Made by a program: the position numbers and the translations under genes
Shown: in pieces, positions 2 to 49,977 of the stretch
Numbering within the stretch: the stretch's first letter is position 1
Layout: each line of letters opens with the position of its first letter
Source of the DNA: Clostridia bacterium
Lineage (GTDB): Bacteria; Bacillota; Clostridia; Oscillospirales; CAG-272
Direction of reading: 5' to 3'
Assembly: GCA_017461765.1 (NCBI GenBank)
Contig: JAFTXO010000027.1
Location: 9,659 to 73,658, forward strand
DNA: 64,000 bases
The notes under the pieces: generated by a model
What the model was told of the DNA's origin: nothing
What the model saw: the letters and a program-made list of their open reading frames with translations, nothing else
Database searches by the model: none

Positions 2-1336
2 TTTGCTCCCGACAGTAAAATAAGAATGCTTGCCGAGCTTAAGGATCAAGCAGAAATAATAATTGCCATAAACGCCGCCGATATCACCAAAAATAAGGTA
101 AGGGGCGATCTTGGCATTACATATGATCTTGATGTATTGAGGCTTATCGACGCATTTCGCGGCTTTGGGCTTTACGTAAGCGGCGTTGTGCTTACAAGAT
201 ACGAGGCGTCCTCTGTGGTTGAGGCATTCAAGAGAAAGCTTGAGGCGCTTGAAATAAAGGTATATAAGCACTACGAGATAGAAAATTACCCTTATGATAT
301 CGATAAGATAGTTAGCGACGAGGGCTACGGTAAAAATGAATACGTTGAGACCACACGTTCCCTGGTGGTTGTTACTGCTCCCGGTCCGGGAAGCGGAAAG
401 ATCGCGACCTGCCTTTCACAGATATATCACGACTTCAAGCGCGGAATAAAATCGGGATACGCCAAGTTCGAAACCTTCCCAATATGGAATATTCCCTTGA
501 AGCACCCTGTAAATGTCGCGTACGAGGCTGCAACAGCAGATCTTAACGATATGAATATGATAGACCCCTTCCATCTTGAAGCATACGGCGAAACGACCGT
601 AAACTATAACAGAGATATCGAAATATTCCCCGTTGTGCGCTCTATGTTTGAGGGTATTTTGGGAGAATGTCCTTATAAATCTCCGACCGATATGGGCGTA
701 AATATGGCGGGAAATTGCATATTTGACGACGAAGCTGTAAGATTTGGCGCTAAAAAAGAGATAATAAGAAGATATTATGACGCTCTTTGCAATCAAAGAA
801 AGGGAAACTCATGTAAGGATGAGATAGACAAGATTCAGCTTCTTATGAAGCAGAGCGGAATAGATATAAAGGAAAGAAAGTGCATAGAAAGCGCACTTAA
901 CAAGGCTCAGGATACGGGCGCTCCTGCAGTTGCGATAGAGCTTTGCGACGGAACTATAATAACAGGAAAAACATCTGCGCTTCTCGGCGCATCGAGCGCG
1001 GCACTCATAAATGCCGTGAAAGCGATAGCAAATATCGATGACGGTATCGATATAATAGCTCCCGAGGTATTAGAGCCTGTACAAAAGCTCAAGATCGAAA
1101 ATCTCGGAAACCATAACCCCAGACTTCATACTGACGAGGTGCTTATCGCGCTCGCAATAACCGCCGCAACACGTGATGATGCAAAGCGTGCAATGGAAGC
1201 GCTGAAGGAGCTTAAGGGCGCTGAGCTTCACTCATCCGTAATACTTTCGCCCGTTGACGTTGCAACCTTCAAAAAGCTTGGAATTAACGTAACGTGCGAG
1301 CCTGTTTATCAAACAAAAAAGCTTTTTCACGGTTAA
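2..1336 (+). CDS. DUF1846 (UPF0371) family protein, N-terminus lies outside the window
   Basis: The frame is open from position 2 (FAPDSKIRMLAELKD...). Sequence ...GITYDLDVLRLIDAF...VVVTAPGPGSGK...ETFPIWNIPLKHPVN... matches my memory of the roughly 500-aa DUF1846 family. Confidence 0.8.
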   Translation, partial: FAPDSKIRMLAELKDQAEIIIAINAADITKNKVRGDLGITYDLDVLRLIDAFRGFGLYVSGVVLTRYEASSVVEAFKRKLEALEIKVYKHYEIENYPYDIDKIVSDEGYGKNEYVETTRSLVVVTAPGPGSGKIATCLSQIYHDFKRGIKSGYAKFETFPIWNIPLKHPVNVAYEAATADLNDMNMIDPFHLEAYGETTVNYNRDIEIFPVVRSMFEGILGECPYKSPTDMGVNMAGNCIFDDEAVRFGAKKEIIRRYYDALCNQRKGNSCKDEIDKIQLLMKQSGIDIKERKCIESALNKAQDTGAPAVAIELCDGTIITGKTSALLGASSAALINAVKAIANIDDGIDIIAPEVLEPVQKLKIENLGNHNPRLHTDEVLIALAITAATRDDAKRAMEALKELKGAELHSSVILSPVDVATFKKLGINVTCEPVYQTKKLFHG

Positions 1337-35903: not shown

Positions 35904-35979
35904 TGGGATATAGCCAAGCGGTAAGGCACCAGACTTTGACTCTGGCATCTCGGTGGTTCGAACCCACCTATCCCAGCCA
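35904..35979 (+). tRNA. tRNA-Gln (anticodon UUG), CCA encoded
   Basis: The acceptor stem TGGGATA pairs with TATCCCA. The anticodon stem CCAGA pairs with TCTGG, with loop CTTTGAC (TTG at 35936-35938). T-arm is GGTGGTTCGAACCCACC and the 3' end is GCCA. Confidence 0.93.
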
Positions 35980-44264: not shown

Positions 44265-45947
44265 TTATTTTTTCGGCGTATCAAATCTAATCTTAAACTC
44301 TGTTTGTCCGTCGTTTAAAACGTAGTCGATAAGATATGCTTTATATGTTCCGGGCTCTGCGTGATACTTAAGCTCTTTTACTGAAATTTGAGGCGTTATA
44401 TCGTTTTCGCATACGAGAGCAGTGTCATCAATTATAACCTTGCCGTCTGCTATCCTTGGCTCAATTGTCGAAACGAAGCGCTCTGTGATCTTGCTTTCCT
44501 TTGTGAGCGTAAAATTATCCGTCATTTCGATCGTATCATCGCCAAATACGAATTTTCTTTCCGCCTTTTTCAGATAATCAAGCCCATATCCGTTTGTAAA
44601 ATCCATATAAACACTTGAATTTTTTTCGTCATAATCAAGATAAACATTATCGCGTCGCACCCCGTCCTGACCTATGCCGTCAAAAAACGGAATGTTGTGA
44701 GAGTATGACGAGGGATTGAAAAATGTATATCTTCTCTCGGTGTGATAACCGTCCTCGTAAGGCCCTGCGCCAAGATCACAAAGGATCTGCTGATTGTTTC
44801 TTGCGAGAATAAATGAGCCAACGTCATTATGGTTGTGGCTCTCACCGTTATTTCCACCCTTGCACGCAAAGCCGTAAAAGTCTGTGCGTTTTACAAAATA
44901 CGCTGAATCCTTCATATGATAAGTAACGTTTGACTGAATATCCTCAGCGACAAAGTCGGGATTAAAATAAATAACCGAGCGTAAAAGAAAGTTAAAGTGT
45001 GTGTTGCTTTCAGCAATTCTTGCTGAATTTAACGGAAGCTTTTCAACGGTATCGCCGTAAATTCCTCTCAGCATATGAGTAAGACCGAGACGGTATTTTT
45101 CCTTTCCGGCACAATCACTGAATGAAACTATAACATCCTTTTGTAAGAATGTTTTCTGCATAAAGGTAGCAATTTCTTTTACCTTTTCATTCTTGAACCA
45201 ATCGACCTCTCCGTTTGTAAGCTCCTTTTCAAGCATAGCGTAGCTTGTGAAAAATCCAAATCCAAAGCCCCAATAGCCCGCACCCTCGACGCAAACTCCG
45301 TCGTCGGCGTAGCTGTCAAGATAAACCTGCATCACACTGTCAAGGCGCTCTCTTTGCTCAAGAAATATCTCAGGACATTCATACATCATAGCTCCGCCGA
45401 CACCGCCGGCACAAACGGCAGCCCAGTTGTTGGGGTGCTTTTCCCAGAAGTATGTTCTTGTGAGAAAGGGATCGAATGTTCTGCGCTTAAGCTCGGCGCT
45501 TATTCTGTCCTTTATAAGCTTTGGAAATCTGTCACTGAAAAGATTTTTTATCTCCGCAAGCGCAAAAGCAATCGAGGAAGCGAAAATATCGATAAGTCCG
45601 GGATCGTAATCGTACGGAGTTGTATTATAATAACTGTTATAATGTCCGAGAGGGGCCCAGGTGTAATCGTTACAGTAGGTCCACACGATATTCAAAAGAC
45701 TTTGATAATATTCGTCATTGTCGGGATAGATAAGAGCCATAAGAGCCGCACTTTCAAGCTGAGTAAGCTGAACGTGCCATACGTTATCCTCATTTCCGCC
45801 GCTTAAAATTTCCCTGACAGAATGAACTCTCGGCTCTTCGGTAAATGCCTTTTTGTAAAGAACCTCGATTTCTTGGCGGTGACGCGCAAAATCGTCACTT
45901 TCGCGAACTCTGTCCCATAATTTTTTATCCTTAGCAAAATCAAGCAT
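44265..45947 (-). CDS. Heparinase II/III-like family protein (cytoplasmic, no signal peptide)
   Basis: 560 aa. The C-terminal region with HNHNDVGSF is typical of heparinase II/III-like proteins. Confidence 0.7.
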   Translation of the reverse strand: MLDFAKDKKLWDRVRESDDFARHRQEIEVLYKKAFTEEPRVHSVREILSGGNEDNVWHVQLTQLESAALMALIYPDNDEYYQSLLNIVWTYCNDYTWAPLGHYNSYYNTTPYDYDPGLIDIFASSIAFALAEIKNLFSDRFPKLIKDRISAELKRRTFDPFLTRTYFWEKHPNNWAAVCAGGVGGAMMYECPEIFLEQRERLDSVMQVYLDSYADDGVCVEGAGYWGFGFGFFTSYAMLEKELTNGEVDWFKNEKVKEIATFMQKTFLQKDVIVSFSDCAGKEKYRLGLTHMLRGIYGDTVEKLPLNSARIAESNTHFNFLLRSVIYFNPDFVAEDIQSNVTYHMKDSAYFVKRTDFYGFACKGGNNGESHNHNDVGSFILARNNQQILCDLGAGPYEDGYHTERRYTFFNPSSYSHNIPFFDGIGQDGVRRDNVYLDYDEKNSSVYMDFTNGYGLDYLKKAERKFVFGDDTIEMTDNFTLTKESKITERFVSTIEPRIADGKVIIDDTALVCENDITPQISVKELKYHAEPGTYKAYLIDYVLNDGQTEFKIRFDTPKK

Positions 45948-46139
45948 AAATACTCCTTATATCATTTTTCCGTGTTAATTGTCTCTTTGTTGTGACATAA
46001 AAATTATTACTGTCAAGATAAGTTTATCATTAAACCTTAAAAAAAGCAATATGAAATAAAAATTTATAATGATTTGTTTGACATATAAAAGCATTTGTGA
46101 TACAATTTAACTGTAAAATAAAAAAGAAGGAGATATTAT

Positions 46140-46760
46140 ATGAAAATTTTATTTCAAGGCGATTCTATAACGGATGCAGACAGAGACAGAAATAATAATT
46201 CCCGTCTTGGCAGAGGATATCCTTTGCTCGTCGAGGCAGCGCTCGGATACGAAGAGCCGGGTAAGTACGAGTTTGTAAACAGAGGCATAAGCGGAAACAG
46301 AGTAGTGGATCTCTACGCACGCATTAAGAATGATATTATAAATCTCGCCCCCGATGTTATGAGCATCTTGATAGGAGTAAACGATGTTTGGCATGAGCTT
46401 GGCGATAACCCGAACGGTGTTGATGCAGATAAATTCTTCAAGATATATTCAATGCTTATTGAGGAAGTAAAGGCGGCACTCCCGAATATCAAAATAATGA
46501 TACTTGAGCCGTTTGTGCTCGAGGGCTGTGCGACTATGGATAACTGGGAATATTTCTCCACCGAAGTTCCAAAGCGTGCTGCTATGGCGAAAAAGATAGC
46601 GAAGATGTACGATCTTCCCTTTATTCCGCTTCAAAAGGGCTTCGATGAGCTTTGTCAAAAAGCTCCGAGCGAATATTGGCTTGGTGACGGAGTTCACCCC
46701 ACCGCAAAAGGTCACGAGTACATAAAATCTCAGTGGATCGAAGCATTCAAAAAGCTTTGA
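46140..46760 (+). CDS. SGNH/GDSL hydrolase family esterase
   Basis: MKILFQGDSITD (block I), GISGN (block II), GVND (block III) and DGVHPT (block V) are present. Confidence 0.88.
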   Translation: MKILFQGDSITDADRDRNNNSRLGRGYPLLVEAALGYEEPGKYEFVNRGISGNRVVDLYARIKNDIINLAPDVMSILIGVNDVWHELGDNPNGVDADKFFKIYSMLIEEVKAALPNIKIMILEPFVLEGCATMDNWEYFSTEVPKRAAMAKKIAKMYDLPFIPLQKGFDELCQKAPSEYWLGDGVHPTAKGHEYIKSQWIEAFKKL

Positions 46761-46937
46761 AGATCAACATTTATTGCCCACTTTCGTGTCCTAAAGGACA
46801 GTTTTGCAAGAATACGGTATATCTCGAAAGAGGTATGCCGTCTTTTTGTATTCACAGCTGCAGTGCTTGTTAAGAAAAATGATATTGTCGATTTGTGCTT
46901 TTCTCGAAACGTAATTTTATAAATTTCTCGGATAGTA

Positions 46938-46966
46938 TTTACAAAACTCATAAATTGTGATATAAT
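46938..46966 (+). promoter_or_regulatory. Sigma-A promoter of the structured leader
   Basis: TTTACA (46938-46943), 17-nt spacer, TG-n-TATAAT (-10 at 46961-46966). Confidence 0.65.
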
Positions 46967-46971
46967 AAAAA

Positions 46972-47177
46972 TGCGAAACAAACCGAATATGGCATTTAGG
47001 AGTATTTTTTGTATAGGGGTACTCTGCCTTTTTGCGTCCGCAAAGATTTGAATTTGGTAAAAAGTACAAGTTCCGTCTTTGTGGATATGGATTATTCTCC
47101 TATTTGTCAAAGGTTTGTTTCGCAGCAATAGGGGCTTGTGCTTTTTCGGTGCGTAGCTTCGGTTGCGCACCTTTTTT
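46972..47177 (+). promoter_or_regulatory. Riboswitch-like structured 5' leader ending in an intrinsic terminator
   Basis: A 13-bp long-range helix (TGCGAAACAAACC at 46972-46984 with GGTTTGTTTCGCA at 47112-47124) encloses about 127 nt with inner helices. A terminator follows: GGTGCGTAGC-TTCG-GTTGCGCACC (47148-47171) plus TTTTTT. Then come the RBS and the ATG at 47197. Confidence 0.55.
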
Positions 47178-47196
47178 ATATGCGATAGGGGGATAT

Positions 47197-47412
47197 ATGA
47201 GCAAGAATATTAAAAAAAGAGTAACAGATATTACAGGTGTAGAGCTTATGCCTGGGGAGCCTACCGTTTGTCTTGGCAACGGAGAGCAGGGCTTTGAGTG
47301 TTGCTGCGACGAGTGCGACTACTATTTGCTTTGTTTTCCCGAATTTGCTCCAAAAAGCGAAGAAGAAAATATTGCTATAAACAATAAGACGGACTCTAAA
47401 GGACTGCTTTGA
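47197..47412 (+). CDS. Small Cys-rich protein (6 Cys in 71 aa), unknown function
   Basis: MSKNIKKRVTDITGVELMPGEPTVCLGNGEQGFECCCDECDYYLLCFPEF... RBS AGGGGGA lies 4-5 nt upstream. The track ORF's upstream extension overlaps the leader and was discarded. Confidence 0.6.
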   Translation: MSKNIKKRVTDITGVELMPGEPTVCLGNGEQGFECCCDECDYYLLCFPEFAPKSEEENIAINNKTDSKGLL

Positions 47413-47440
47413 AATTTAATAAAAAAAGATGCTTATCGAT

Positions 47441-47480
47441 AAAAAAGAGGGCAGAGAATGTAATCATTCTCTGCCCTCTT
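47441..47480 (-). terminator. Terminator (T-run on the minus strand, serves the GH95-like gene; the hairpin also closes the small + gene)
   Basis: A 15-bp stem, AGAGGGCAGAGAATG-TAAT-CATTCTCTGCCCTCT, with an A6 run on the + side. Confidence 0.8.
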
Positions 47481-47586
47481 GTGCTGATTTGATCAAAGAC
47501 AGCCTTTGGTTAAGCCGTTCGTTCATTTGTTAAGTCGGTTAAAAAAGTCCTTAAGAAGCCGCGACATTAGAAACAGTATGGTTGTC

Positions 47587-49977
47587 TTAACAGTTAGAAG
47601 TATATTTTAATTTTACGCTTTCGCCCTTTTTAAGAGTGATAAGAGAGAAGCTTTCTCCGTATACGCTTTTTTCGGTGGGAACAGAGGACGAGACAAGAGA
47701 GTAATTTTTGTTCGTTCCTATGTTTATGCTTCCGCCGTTTTTAGAGGTAACGGTAGCGCAAAAGCTTTCGTTTTCCCAATTGATAGACACCTCATATCCA
47801 CCTCTTGCGCAGATATTTTCGATCTTGCCCTTCTTGAATTGCTCAGACAAAGCGGGCAGGAGCTTTATTTTGTCATTGTCGGAATAGATGAGCATTTCGT
47901 AAATTGCCGCAGTAAAGCCGAGATTTGCGTCTATTTGGAACGGAGCGTGACCTGCATGAGTGAACTTTAGCGTAACGCCCATGTTGCGCCAATCATTGTG
48001 ATATGTAAAGAAGTTCGGGCCTGTGCAGAACCTTAAAAGAAGCTCAAGACATTCCTTCGATCTTTGAGCGTCATTAAGTCTTGCGTAGATGTTTGCCATA
48101 TGCGAAAGGCTCCAGCCCGTCTGATCCTTAAGACCTATGCAAAGTCGCTTCTCAACAGCAGTCTTGCAAGCATCAAATAGCTTTTTGTTGTTTTCCTCGT
48201 TTATCTCAAACCCGGGGAATAGCGGATAAATATGTGAAAGATGTCTGTGATAATAGTTATCCTTGAAATCCTCGTGAAGCCATTCCTTGATAGCTCCGTC
48301 CTCGTTTATCTCGTATTCGGGAATAGAAGAAAGTATCTTTTCCCAATCCTCGATCTTTTCACCGTCAAGCCCGAATTTTTTCGCAACGGAAAGAACATTT
48401 GTCGTAAGCTCCTTCAAAAGAGCAAAATCCATCGTCGCGTTCATACAAACGCTGATCTGTCCCGCGCCTTCAAAATCGCCCTTCGGATAGTTTTCCGGAG
48501 AGTTTGAGGGATAGAATTTCAATTTTCCGTTTTCATCGTAAACGGTGAAATCCTCGTAAAAGAGCAAAGCCTCCTTCATAAACGGATAAGCGCGCTCAAG
48601 CAAGAATTTCTCATCACGAGTATAAAGATAATAATCGTAATATATAGCGCTTATCCAAGCAGAGCTTCCTGTCCAGTATAAAACGTGTGGCTGAAGATTT
48701 TCCTTTTTACCGTTTGAGTTATCCATAAACAAGGGCAAGAGTAATCCGCGGCAGCCAAAAAGATTTGCGGCGTTTCGTCTGTAATCGTCCTTGAATTTAT
48801 CGTAAAGATTAAAAAGAGGCAACACCGTGTCGCTTAAATTGCCCATATAAGCCTGCCAATACGCCATTTGAATGTTTTCATTATTGAAAAAGGTGCAAGC
48901 CCAGGCAGGAGAATAATCTCCGTTCCAAAGTCCTTGCAGATTTGCGGGAAATTCACATCCGTAGGATGATGAAATAAGCAGATATCTTCCGTAGTCCGCC
49001 ATCTTTTCAAAAAGACGTGTATCTACATTTCCCGAATAGCTGCTTAAAAGAAGCTCCTCGTTTGATTTGTTTTCTTCGTTTTCGCAAAGAGTTAGCCTTG
49101 TTCTGTTAAATACGTTCTTGAAAATTTCAGTATGATTTTTATAAAGCTTATCATATGTAAGAGTGCATTTATCGACACTCTCGCGCATTTTTTCAAAGGG
49201 AAGCGCTTTTTCGGCAACATCAAGAATAAATGTGACCGCAGTAGCCCCCGAAACCTTAACACAGTTGCCAAGCGTGGCATCTCCGACCATACCGGGTCTT
49301 TTTGCTCTTCCGCGCTCTATTGCGGAAATATCGCCGTCAGTGCTAAGGATTTTGATAATACCCGAATAATCAAGATCTCCGAAGGTCTTCATTTCCGAAT
49401 ATACGTATCTGTCCTTTGAAAACGACGAGAATGTGTCGTAGCATTCAGGATCGGGAAAATCGACCATGTCGTGTTTTTCAAGAGCGATCTGTACGGTAAA
49501 AGGAGCATCCTTTTTAATATTCATTACAAAATATCCGTCACTTTGAGATACAAATGATGTACGGACGAAAGATCCGCTCTCATCCTTATACGATACGGTG
49601 CAAGTTCCGTTTTCCATGTCGATGACTCTTTGGTAGTCTTTCATAGCTCCGTTAGTTTCAAAGAGTATATGTATATCAAATGCGGGAAAAAACTTTCCCT
49701 TGTGAGAGCGAAATCCCGTTTCCTTTATAAGAGACGGATAAAGATCGTTTGCTTCCTTGTATTTCTTTTGATCCATAAGAGAACGAAGCTCACCAAGCGA
49801 GCCCGAGACATCGGGAAGCTCAAAATTCACCGTGTAATTATATAAAGCCTCGTGATTTATAAGAATTCTTTCGTCATATACGCAACCGTAAACGCAACCG
49901 CCAAGACGTCCGTTTCCTATCGGGCTTGCGTCCATCCAGCGTGTTGCGGGATACAGATTTATTATCTTCTTTTCCAT
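47587..49977 (-). CDS. Glycoside hydrolase family 95-like protein (alpha-L-fucosidase type)
   Basis: 796 aa. N-terminal ...ATRWMDASPIGNGRLGGCVYG...ERILINHEALY is typical of the GH95 N-terminal domain. No signal peptide. Confidence 0.75.
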   Translation of the reverse strand: MEKKIINLYPATRWMDASPIGNGRLGGCVYGCVYDERILINHEALYNYTVNFELPDVSGSLGELRSLMDQKKYKEANDLYPSLIKETGFRSHKGKFFPAFDIHILFETNGAMKDYQRVIDMENGTCTVSYKDESGSFVRTSFVSQSDGYFVMNIKKDAPFTVQIALEKHDMVDFPDPECYDTFSSFSKDRYVYSEMKTFGDLDYSGIIKILSTDGDISAIERGRAKRPGMVGDATLGNCVKVSGATAVTFILDVAEKALPFEKMRESVDKCTLTYDKLYKNHTEIFKNVFNRTRLTLCENEENKSNEELLLSSYSGNVDTRLFEKMADYGRYLLISSSYGCEFPANLQGLWNGDYSPAWACTFFNNENIQMAYWQAYMGNLSDTVLPLFNLYDKFKDDYRRNAANLFGCRGLLLPLFMDNSNGKKENLQPHVLYWTGSSAWISAIYYDYYLYTRDEKFLLERAYPFMKEALLFYEDFTVYDENGKLKFYPSNSPENYPKGDFEGAGQISVCMNATMDFALLKELTTNVLSVAKKFGLDGEKIEDWEKILSSIPEYEINEDGAIKEWLHEDFKDNYYHRHLSHIYPLFPGFEINEENNKKLFDACKTAVEKRLCIGLKDQTGWSLSHMANIYARLNDAQRSKECLELLLRFCTGPNFFTYHNDWRNMGVTLKFTHAGHAPFQIDANLGFTAAIYEMLIYSDNDKIKLLPALSEQFKKGKIENICARGGYEVSINWENESFCATVTSKNGGSINIGTNKNYSLVSSSVPTEKSVYGESFSLITLKKGESVKLKYTSNC

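Follow-up and report, generated by a model that had tools for sequence, protein, structure and literature searches.

The window analysed here, a 64-kb stretch of contig JAFTXO010000027.1 from a Clostridia bacterium, carries on its forward strand a structured RNA leader that lies, together with its promoter, at positions 46938–47196 (coordinates without a locus name refer to the window). The leader is probably a portable cis-acting transcription attenuator, which would operate through a cascade of mutually exclusive helices and be off by default. Established below are the helices with their covariation, the fact that they exclude one another, and the reliance of the downstream genes on read-through. 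A preliminary description of the region had proposed an attenuating riboswitch; the part of that proposal that concerns a structured cis-acting attenuator holds, whereas the ligand-binding part is not borne out, as the core is variable and the conservation is mostly that of alternative pairings. The leader is present in a single copy, and no further copies were found within the 64 kb.

Layout of the unit and sequences compared

The unit opens with a SigmaA-type promoter at 46938–46966 (+ strand; consensus scan), in which the −35 element TTTACA (46938–46943) is followed by a 17-nt spacer and an extended −10 element, TG-n-TATAAT (46958–46966). It matches 11 of the 12 consensus positions plus the TG, in agreement with the near-consensus extended −10 promoter described earlier, and is also kept in nearly all of 76 upstream regions of homologs and in leaders from metagenomes. 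Transcription would start ∼6 nt past the −10 box, so that the RNA would open with the closing helix, P1. The segment 46970–47200 folds with a minimum free energy (MFE) of −88 kcal/mol, compared with −56 ± 4.2 kcal/mol for 200 dinucleotide shuffles (z = −7.67; 0/200 as good). At the other end of the unit, the U-tract of an intrinsic terminator ends ∼20 nt ahead of the start codon of an open reading frame (ORF) for a Cys-rich protein of 71 aa (47197–47412, + strand, ATG at 47197), which is preceded by the ribosome-binding site (RBS) AGGGGGA (47187–47193, + strand) and is one of many alternative cargo genes.

Homologs were collected by scanning one genome per GTDB species for relatives of the downstream 71-aa protein, which gave 80 loci in 65 assemblies labelled Clostridia, Eubacteriales or Oscillospiraceae, with up to four copies per assembly, some of them tandem and many at contig ends. 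The promoter, RNA start, terminator and RBS are kept in ∼75 of 82 upstream regions, and the interiors fall into many sequence classes. Three sets of leaders were compared: a MAFFT alignment of 72 homologous leaders (A1), an alignment of 43 minimal leaders (A5) and an independent metagenome set of 78 non-redundant leaders, which together with the window leader made 79 aligned sequences. A metagenome scan with a pattern taken from the RNA alone (UUUGGYAAAAANGY, 55–85 nt, UUUUUCGGUGCG) matched at least 120 contigs, human-gut assemblies included.

Closing helix and variable core

The 13-bp closing helix of the preliminary description is present and perfectly paired: the 5′ strand of P1 at 46972–46984 (TGCGAAACAAACC / UGCGAAACAAACC) is the perfect complement of the 3′ strand at 47112–47124 (GGTTTGTTTCGCA / GGUUUGUUUCGCA; both + strand). 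The helix is also conserved and covarying in homologs. Its pairing amounts to 96.7% in A1 (9 of the 13 pairs compensatory), 94.5% in A5 (6 compensatory pairs) and 90.7% in the metagenome set with the window leader (10 of 13 compensatory), and variants such as GCCAAAC/GUUUGGC, GCUACAC/GUGUAGC, GCGAAAC/GUUUCGC and GUCACAC/GUGUGAC occur. Unguided RNAalifold recovers P1. The covariation score of the tested structure in A1 is 0.305 compared with 0.177 for shuffled alignments, with 0/500 as high, and pairing falls to 37–48% in slid controls in which the partners were moved by 1–3 columns. Because it is conserved and covarying, the closing helix is far more than a chance pairing; in the window, it contributes −19.1 kcal/mol on its own. 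Directly 3′ of its 5′ strand lies a conserved AAUA (46986–46989, + strand; columns A17, A18, T19 and A20 of A1, each at least 90% conserved). This AAUA, the P1 sequence GCnAnACAA that it follows, the loop of a tip hairpin termed H and a CAA linker are the four conserved features for which pairing offers no explanation.

The interior enclosed by P1 (variable core, 46990–47111, + strand) is far less uniform. In the MFE structure of the window leader it comprises helix P2 (46990–46994/47105–47109 and 46997–47002/47097–47102), hairpin P3 with a GGGRUAnnUAUACCC-type motif (47015–47031) and the P4 stem (47036–47047/47075–47086), all on the + strand, with the apical region of P4 bearing a segment that we call X. 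Of the inner helices proposed earlier, TAGGAG/CTCCTA (46997–47002/47097–47102) is part of this structure, and GTACT/AGTAC and TTTGCG/CGCAAA are absent from it; the AGTAC segment falls within X, which pairs with a downstream segment, X′. When 17 paralog classes were folded singly, one architecture emerged despite their different sequences, namely a long rod of P1 (with P2) that closes a junction with a short GGGAUAnnUAUACCC-type hairpin and a long P4 hairpin, the apical region of which bears a conserved UUUGGUAAAAA(Y)GC. The core between P1 and the tip nevertheless varies from 145 to 234 nt and forms either a rod, as at 145 nt, or a three-way junction, as at 220 nt. One short leader class (∼160 nt) has no junction, the short classes lack P3 and P4, and the minimal leaders (145–176 nt) are single rods composed of P1 (GCGACACA.../...UGUGUCGC), an AU-rich internal loop with the AAUA, a variable P2 and the tip hairpin H.

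The X:X′ pseudoknot and hairpin H

Segment X (AAAAGUACAAGUUCC, 47060–47074, + strand) overlaps a UUUGGUAAAAA motif that is conserved in the aligned leaders (47053–47063, + strand), and in the window it occupies the apical loop of P4. Its partner X′ (GGGGCUUGUGCUUUU, 47131–47145) follows a GCAAU linker in the segment between the 3′ strand of P1 and the terminator (47125–47146, + strand). X and X′ are complementary over 15 nt, and since their pairing crosses P1, it forms a pseudoknot. This pairing, which the preliminary description missed, is best read as an anti-antiterminator. Its pairing reaches 92.1% in A1, where 9 of the 15 pairs show compensatory changes, and 89.4% in A5; its proximal 10 bp are 95.9% paired in the metagenome leaders and the window. 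Such column-wise pair counts are more informative for X:X′ than a comparison of cognate and non-cognate duplexes. In the window, the X:X′ duplex has a free energy of −18.8 kcal/mol, and the full leader in a nested fold with X:X′ and without P1 reaches −69.0 kcal/mol, which means that X:X′ is energetically worthwhile only as a pseudoknot on top of P1.

In minimal leaders, X is also a strand of hairpin H (GCRUUUUUAC-UUUG-GUAAAAAYGC), whose 5′ strand we call Y and whose 3′ strand is X. X′ (..GCRUUUUU) is a sequence copy of Y, and Y and X′ therefore compete for X. H is 92.6% paired in A5, with GC-to-AU exchanges in both directions, and one position of X covaries with partners in both Y and X′ (pairing in H was taken from A5 and the energy analysis, the 79-sequence MAFFT alignment being too gapped for counts in this hairpin). 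The covariation score of A5 is 0.288 compared with 0.159 for shuffled alignments, with 0/500 as high, and slid controls retain 30–54% pairing. Release of X from the 5′ domain requires +7 to +8 kcal/mol, against about −16 kcal/mol gained in the X:X′ duplex before any pseudoknot penalty. On this balance, no more than a few kcal/mol separate the two states, and X:X′, and thus termination, is favored.

Terminator and antiterminator

The UUCG-capped 10-bp terminator reported earlier is present and conserved. Its stem, GGTGCGTAGC-TTCG-GTTGCGCACC (47148–47171), is followed by T6 (47172–47177; terminator scan, + strand), and it is 97.1% paired in the metagenome leaders and the window and 99.3% paired in A5. 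The hairpin has a free energy of −16.3 kcal/mol in the window. An alternative hairpin occupies 47125–47166 (+ strand), where the linker and X′ fold back on the 5′ arm and loop of the terminator (GGUGCGUAGCUUCGGUUG), with a U-run as the loop; a transcript prefix that ends at 47166 has this antiterminator as its MFE structure, at approximately −16.5 kcal/mol. For the full leader, P1 with the terminator gives −85.1 kcal/mol and P1 with the antiterminator −81.5 kcal/mol. Over the 11 pairs that were counted, the antiterminator is 85.5% paired with 7 compensatory pairs, and in a minority class whose terminator loop differs (GUUCCUUUUGGGGC, GUUCUCUAUUGGAGC), X′ has changed to match. In line with this, duplexes of X′ and the terminator within a class have energies of −15.5 and −12.1 kcal/mol, compared with −8 to −9 kcal/mol across classes and −9.4 kcal/mol for shuffled sequences. 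Family-wide, the antiterminator-stage fold reaches −19.1 and −15.8 kcal/mol (z = −2.5 and −2.0 relative to shuffled X′), which makes it as strong as the family terminator at −15.5 kcal/mol.

Downstream genes

The element had been tied in the preliminary description to the gene of the small Cys-rich protein, and this tie has to be given up: among the matches listed, 99 of 121 leaders precede other genes, 14 precede members of the Cys-rich family and 8 are cut by contig ends. The Cys-rich family is nevertheless the most frequent cargo. A second parse with a different ORF caller assigned 109 downstream ORFs among the matches listed to at least 54 protein clusters. Their start codons lie a median of 24 nt past the U-tract, and in 95 of the 109 they are no more than 45 nt away, too close for a second promoter to fit in between, so these genes depend on read-through of the leader. 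By Pfam, the cargo includes surface proteins with SLH and Big_2 domains, Zn-ribbon membrane proteins, SHOCT/DUF4429 proteins, a DrrA-like ABC ATPase, lipoproteins with Listeria-Bacteroides repeats, CpXC proteins, an AMP-binding enzyme, an AbiH-like protein, NlpC/P60, a SLOG/DprA-like protein and tRNA_anti-like OB proteins, and many ORFs have no Pfam match. If the proposed function is correct, a single device in front of dozens of unrelated genes implies an undescribed regulon and signal, and the regulon would span surface proteins, Zn-ribbon membrane proteins, a cell-wall hydrolase, an ABC ATPase, defence-like genes and the multicopy Cys-rich family.

Proposed switching mechanism

In the mechanism that we propose, the 5′ domain would fold as a P1-closed rod or three-way junction with X at its tip, where X would be held by Y in hairpin H (minimal leaders) or reside in the apical loop of P4 (window). 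X′ would then emerge just past the 3′ strand of P1, with two possible partners. In the OFF state, X′ would take X, which would leave the 5′ arm of the terminator free, so that the terminator would form and RNA polymerase would stop at 47172–47177. In the ON state, X would be withheld, and X′ would pair with the 5′ arm and loop of the terminator to form the antiterminator, which would be complete before the 3′ arm exists, and the gene would be transcribed. The leader would thus act as a chain of mutually exclusive helices: Y:X (or a buried X), then X:X′, X′ with the 5′ arm of the terminator (T5′), and T5′ with its 3′ arm (T3′). As the energetics favor X:X′, OFF would be the default state, and most of the unusually high sequence conservation in the 3′ half of the leader is accounted for by the strands shared along this chain. 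With its four helices in competition, a long pseudoknot among them, the switch would offer a clean model for co-transcriptional control by strand displacement.

Several points weigh against this mechanism. Termination and read-through are predictions from sequence. Covariation of X:X′ is modest in minimal leaders, in which much of the pairing is invariant, and the test of cognate against non-cognate X:X′ duplexes was weak (fraction 0.33), X being largely conserved. The 13–15-bp X:X′ helix across P1 is served by a linker of 5–8 nt, which puts its steric fit in question; if X:X′ were sterically incompatible with P1, the two would become alternatives and the logic of the switch would change. Finally, complete units at L069:2456–2700 and L032:2433–2680 are followed by ORFs cut down to 6 and 22 codons, with a second complete unit directly downstream, and intact leaders in front of such ORFs could mean that the short RNA is itself functional.

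This last observation leads to a different explanation, in which the primary product is an abundant, free-standing small RNA of ∼205 nt that acts in trans or in a ribonucleoprotein, with leakage into the ORF being secondary. A near-consensus promoter coupled to a strong terminator, a predicted terminated RNA with a compact pseudoknotted fold, termination as the default state and the persistence of leaders ahead of truncated ORFs would all suit such an RNA. However, the covarying antiterminator is sensible only with regulated read-through, the close spacing of RBS and start codon to the U-tract recurs across the gene families counted above, and the only evident conserved single-stranded seed is X, which is used in cis. 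We consider the small RNA improbable as the main explanation, and possible as a second role of the leader.

Input signal

The interior of the leader is too variable for an obvious ligand pocket, and the input is therefore judged most likely to be a trans factor, with a small ligand or ion less likely. Tentatively, we suggest a factor, most likely a protein, that stabilizes the X-bearing tip hairpin or loop, or acts at the P1/AAUA base. With X thereby withheld from X′, the genes would be switched ON.

In a true riboswitch, a small molecule or ion would instead bind the P1/P2 or junction domain and set the presentation of X, with zinc, thiols and the envelope as conceivable signals. The layout is classical in this respect: P1 sits at the extreme 5′ end and is followed by a structured core and then an expression platform. 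The genes behind the many copies per genome are heterogeneous, which recalls second-messenger riboswitches, and there is no known protein partner. N-terminal Zn-ribbon and Cys-rich proteins are enriched in the cargo, at 10/60 compared with 16/575 control ORFs (p = 4e-5) and, in a further count, at 37/109 compared with 34/575. Against this, sequence, length and topology are all poorly conserved from P1 to the tip, few conserved unpaired nucleotides are available for a pocket, the pairing chain of Y, X, X′ and the terminator accounts for most of the conservation, the cargo indicates no single metabolite, and the enrichment is uncorrected for family redundancy and uses a control that includes spurious ORFs. 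A ligand-binding riboswitch is thus unlikely, if still worth considering as the second candidate for the input.

The same enrichment keeps alive a more specific reading, that the leader senses zinc or thiol status regulon-wide, for example as the first Zn2+- or Cys/redox-responsive riboswitch-like RNA. Non-essential Zn-ribbon and Cys-rich proteins, including the multicopy C-x11-C-x2-C-x5-C family described below, would then be switched ON only with sufficient supply; we regard this as quite improbable. Whatever its nature, the signal that flips the leader would tell when ‘hypothetical’ genes of uncultured gut bacteria are needed.

Spread of the unit

The promoter–leader–terminator module evidently recombines ahead of different genes. 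At L102:880–1010, an RBS/start remnant of the Cys-gene type (ATATGATAGGAGGATATCATC) follows the terminator of the first leader, the Cys-rich ORF itself is gone, and position 1008 is the start of an unrelated membrane protein that has a Zn-ribbon at its C terminus; this remnant is the footprint of a leader module that recombined ahead of a new gene. Tandem full units lie ∼650 bp apart in L003 and L010, and L041 contains an inverted unit. Promoter reuse has been documented in prokaryotes, with highly similar, promoter-bearing regions upstream of non-homologous genes both within and between genomes (PMC3575422). The leader unit differs from those promoters in that it adds a covarying regulatory RNA and a terminator, and its spread to new genes would be a concrete case of regulatory rewiring through reuse of a promoter together with its leader.

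From the same observations it could be argued that the unit is a recombining DNA module, akin to a mobile promoter or a miniature inverted-repeat transposable element (MITE), in which the inverted repeats matter as DNA and the RNA structure is incidental. The unit (∼46790–47480) has several copies per genome, sometimes arranged in tandem and frequently located at contig ends, its downstream genes are unrelated, and both the L102 remnant and the documented promoter reuse fit such behavior. The structure itself speaks otherwise. P1 and X:X′ contain many G-U pairs (A1 and the metagenome set), many of them among the compensatory changes, and these pairs become A-C mismatches on the other strand, so the structure acts as a + strand RNA. 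In addition, the unit and the gene behind it always point in the same direction, neither terminal inverted repeats nor target duplications nor transposase genes were seen, and conservation extends jointly to three overlapping alternative helices. Spread by recombination is also compatible with a regulatory RNA function. A module that matters only as DNA is accordingly very remote as an explanation.

An origin from phages or plasmids was considered and rejected: a first RNA pattern (TTTGGTAAAAAYGC...), stricter than that of the metagenome scan and the only one run on the IMG/VR viral contigs, gave 0 matches there, and the leader had 0 matches in PLSDB. Two contigs from human faecal viromes, MT837627.1 (2227–2349) and MT835845.1 (2124–2231), both unannotated ‘Bacteriophage sp.’ entries, match the 3′ two-thirds of the leader at ∼80% identity.

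The Cys-rich protein family

The 71-aa protein encoded downstream of the window leader has 1189 relatives with 64–93% identity, all of them hypothetical proteins from metagenome-assembled genomes (MAGs) of Clostridia and from metagenomes. It had no match in Pfam, NCBIfam or the PDB sequences, and AlphaFold models of the short and long forms (predicted local distance difference test scores of 47 and 59, respectively) were too low in confidence for a fold search. The pattern C-x9-CCC-x2-C-x5-C is invariant in the family and can be read as C-x11-C-x2-C-x5-C, a spacing known from WhiB-like [4Fe-4S] proteins. Despite this spacing, the family has no match to the Pfam Whib model. Short forms of ∼70 aa have variable tails, and long forms of ∼123 aa carry a conserved Arg/Lys-rich helical C-terminal domain and end in a predicted Arg-rich helix (68–82, KRHKIRMNRLFRERVGG) and a basic tail. 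By analogy, the long form is a candidate, if a speculative one, for a factor that would act on its own leader.

In the L059 lineage (Candidatus Scatosoma), a Cys-rich homolog of 145 aa occurs without a leader. At L186 (leader at 3–95, minus strand), the downstream ORF resembles a frameshifted distant relative of the family (...ELVPGISV...GCFCDSCPFWEQCERC), which may point to a larger superfamily of such small Cys-rich cargo. A precursor of a ribosomally synthesized and post-translationally modified peptide with a nearby maturase was rejected, as the only recurrent neighbor is an ABC exporter pair at 14 loci, and this pair is probably synteny of one paralog class.

Comparison with known regulatory RNAs

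The statement of the preliminary description that the element matches no class known to it is consistent with our searches, in which Rfam assigned no family. With Rfam 15 (4227 models) at the gathering threshold, the only match in the window was a tRNA gene (35904–35976); at E < 10, nothing plausible was found in 46700–47500; at E < 1, the L091 leader gave nothing relevant; and across 15 metagenome leader loci the sole match was an unrelated Gut-1 RNA. In the searchable literature we found no description of the leader motif, which may correspond to an unnamed entry in a human-microbiome catalogue that holds thousands of unnamed candidate RNAs (PMC8040213). If the proposed function is correct, an uncatalogued attenuator exists in Clostridia of the gut and rumen (Oscillospiraceae-like MAGs, along with metagenomes from human, ruminant and other guts). 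Of the features by which riboswitches are recognized, the leader has a conserved secondary structure backed by covariation and, from computation, a mutually exclusive terminator/antiterminator platform. We file it as a transcription-attenuating leader, or orphan riboswitch-like element, with an unusually long pseudoknot and an unusually broad deployment.

In its logic, the leader resembles the S-box (SAM-I) and similar Firmicute leaders, which likewise contain three exclusive helices and a 5′ domain closed by a helix that sequesters the 5′ strand of the antiterminator so that the terminator forms, and which also sit in the 5′ untranslated region with the RBS right after the U-tract. In the S-box, however, P1 itself is the anti-antiterminator, whereas here this role would fall to a long loop-to-tail pseudoknot across P1; the leader also has a fourth helix, H, that competes for X in minimal forms, a variable core and cargo from multiple pathways. 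The T-box resembles the leader in its many copies per genome, a conserved 3′ switching module, a variable 5′ domain, its Firmicutes hosts and a UGGN-like sequence beside the switching helix. It was rejected because the GG of UUUGGU varies (UUUGAU, UUUGUU, UUUGGA) in at least 10 of 72 leaders, which is incompatible with pairing to a CCA end; in addition, there was no match to RF00230 at E < 10 and no T-box sequence, the folds contain no Stem I or specifier loop, and the cargo is not related to amino acids. The deployment of one device in several copies per genome ahead of many surface, adhesin and uncharacterized genes recalls the cyclic di-GMP (c-di-GMP) I and II riboswitches, but the leader has no similarity to GEMM-I or GEMM-II (Rfam negative) and no evident conserved pocket.

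Among protein-dependent systems, the leader shares with the BglG/LicT ribonucleic antiterminator (RAT), PyrR and TRAP systems a conserved hairpin whose stabilization by a protein would choose between terminator and antiterminator. Genes for such regulators are sometimes found behind their own target leader, as for bglG. The leader differs in having no RAT, PyrR loop or GAG/UAG repeats, and its hairpin would act one step further upstream, by blocking the anti-antiterminator. PyrR, TRAP, LicT/SacY RAT and ANTAR were rejected as identities of the leader, as there was no Rfam match among the modelled families, no GAG/UAG array and no twin hexaloop hairpins. Attenuation by a leader peptide was rejected as well: 17 of 72 leaders contain no ORF with a Shine–Dalgarno sequence and start codon, and the ORFs of the others are not positionally conserved. 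A type III toxin–antitoxin system (ToxIN-like) does not fit a leader without tandem repeats, a downstream protein without a Pfam match and diverse cargo.

The lambda PR′–tR′ ‘6S’/Q system offers a further parallel, in that a strong promoter yields a terminated RNA of ∼200 nt unless an antitermination factor acts, and the leader has a weak −10-like element at approximately +15 to +24, as in lambda. More speculatively, the conserved A-rich hairpin near the tip (loop UUUGGUAA) and the Arg-rich helix of the long-form Cys-rich protein recall lambda N–boxB. The lambda RNA has no switch by alternative pairing, whereas the leader has a covarying antiterminator and a chromosomal location. A sigma-dependent promoter-proximal pause element was also considered and is no more than weakly suggested, the enrichment of −10-like hexamers being weak (52/118 compared with 26/118 shuffled).

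Genomic surroundings

The window copy of the leader unit, which stems from gut-type metagenome assemblies, lies between unrelated genes, and the same synteny is found in three metagenome samples. The neighborhood (44265–49977) is rich in carbohydrate-active functions, with a heparinase II/III-like gene, a GDSL esterase that has its own TTGACA-17-TACAAT promoter (46078–46106) and a GH95 fucosidase (47587–49977, minus strand) that is convergent with the Cys-rich ORF. Upstream of the unit, a terminator-like hairpin (ACGGTATATCTCGAAAGAGGTATGCCGT and a T-run, 46814–46847, + strand; terminator scan) is enclosed by a conserved element of ∼60 nt (CTAAAGGACAGTTTT...AATACGGTATATCTCGAAAGAGGTATGCCGT-T5, 46791–46852, + strand; alignment with 6 loci), which is 92–95% identical in L001 and L041 and recurs at variable distance upstream of units in L001, L012, L032, L038 and L041. 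This element may insulate the unit from upstream transcription, or may be the 3′ end of another element. Downstream, a 16-bp perfect hairpin with T-runs on both sides (47445–47480, no strand assigned) lies between the convergent Cys-rich ORF and GH95 gene and is likely a bidirectional terminator that closes the unit; homology of the unit to L012 and L069 reaches ∼47480. The same hairpin gave several spurious weak Rfam matches to small RNAs and microRNAs. In L102, a Gut-1 RNA (RF01706, 54.3 bits) lies at 1905–1980 between two leader-controlled genes, and many short hairpins with common GTGATGT- or ATGATATA-type arms surround it (1480–2090). Its proximity to the leaders is probably a coincidence.

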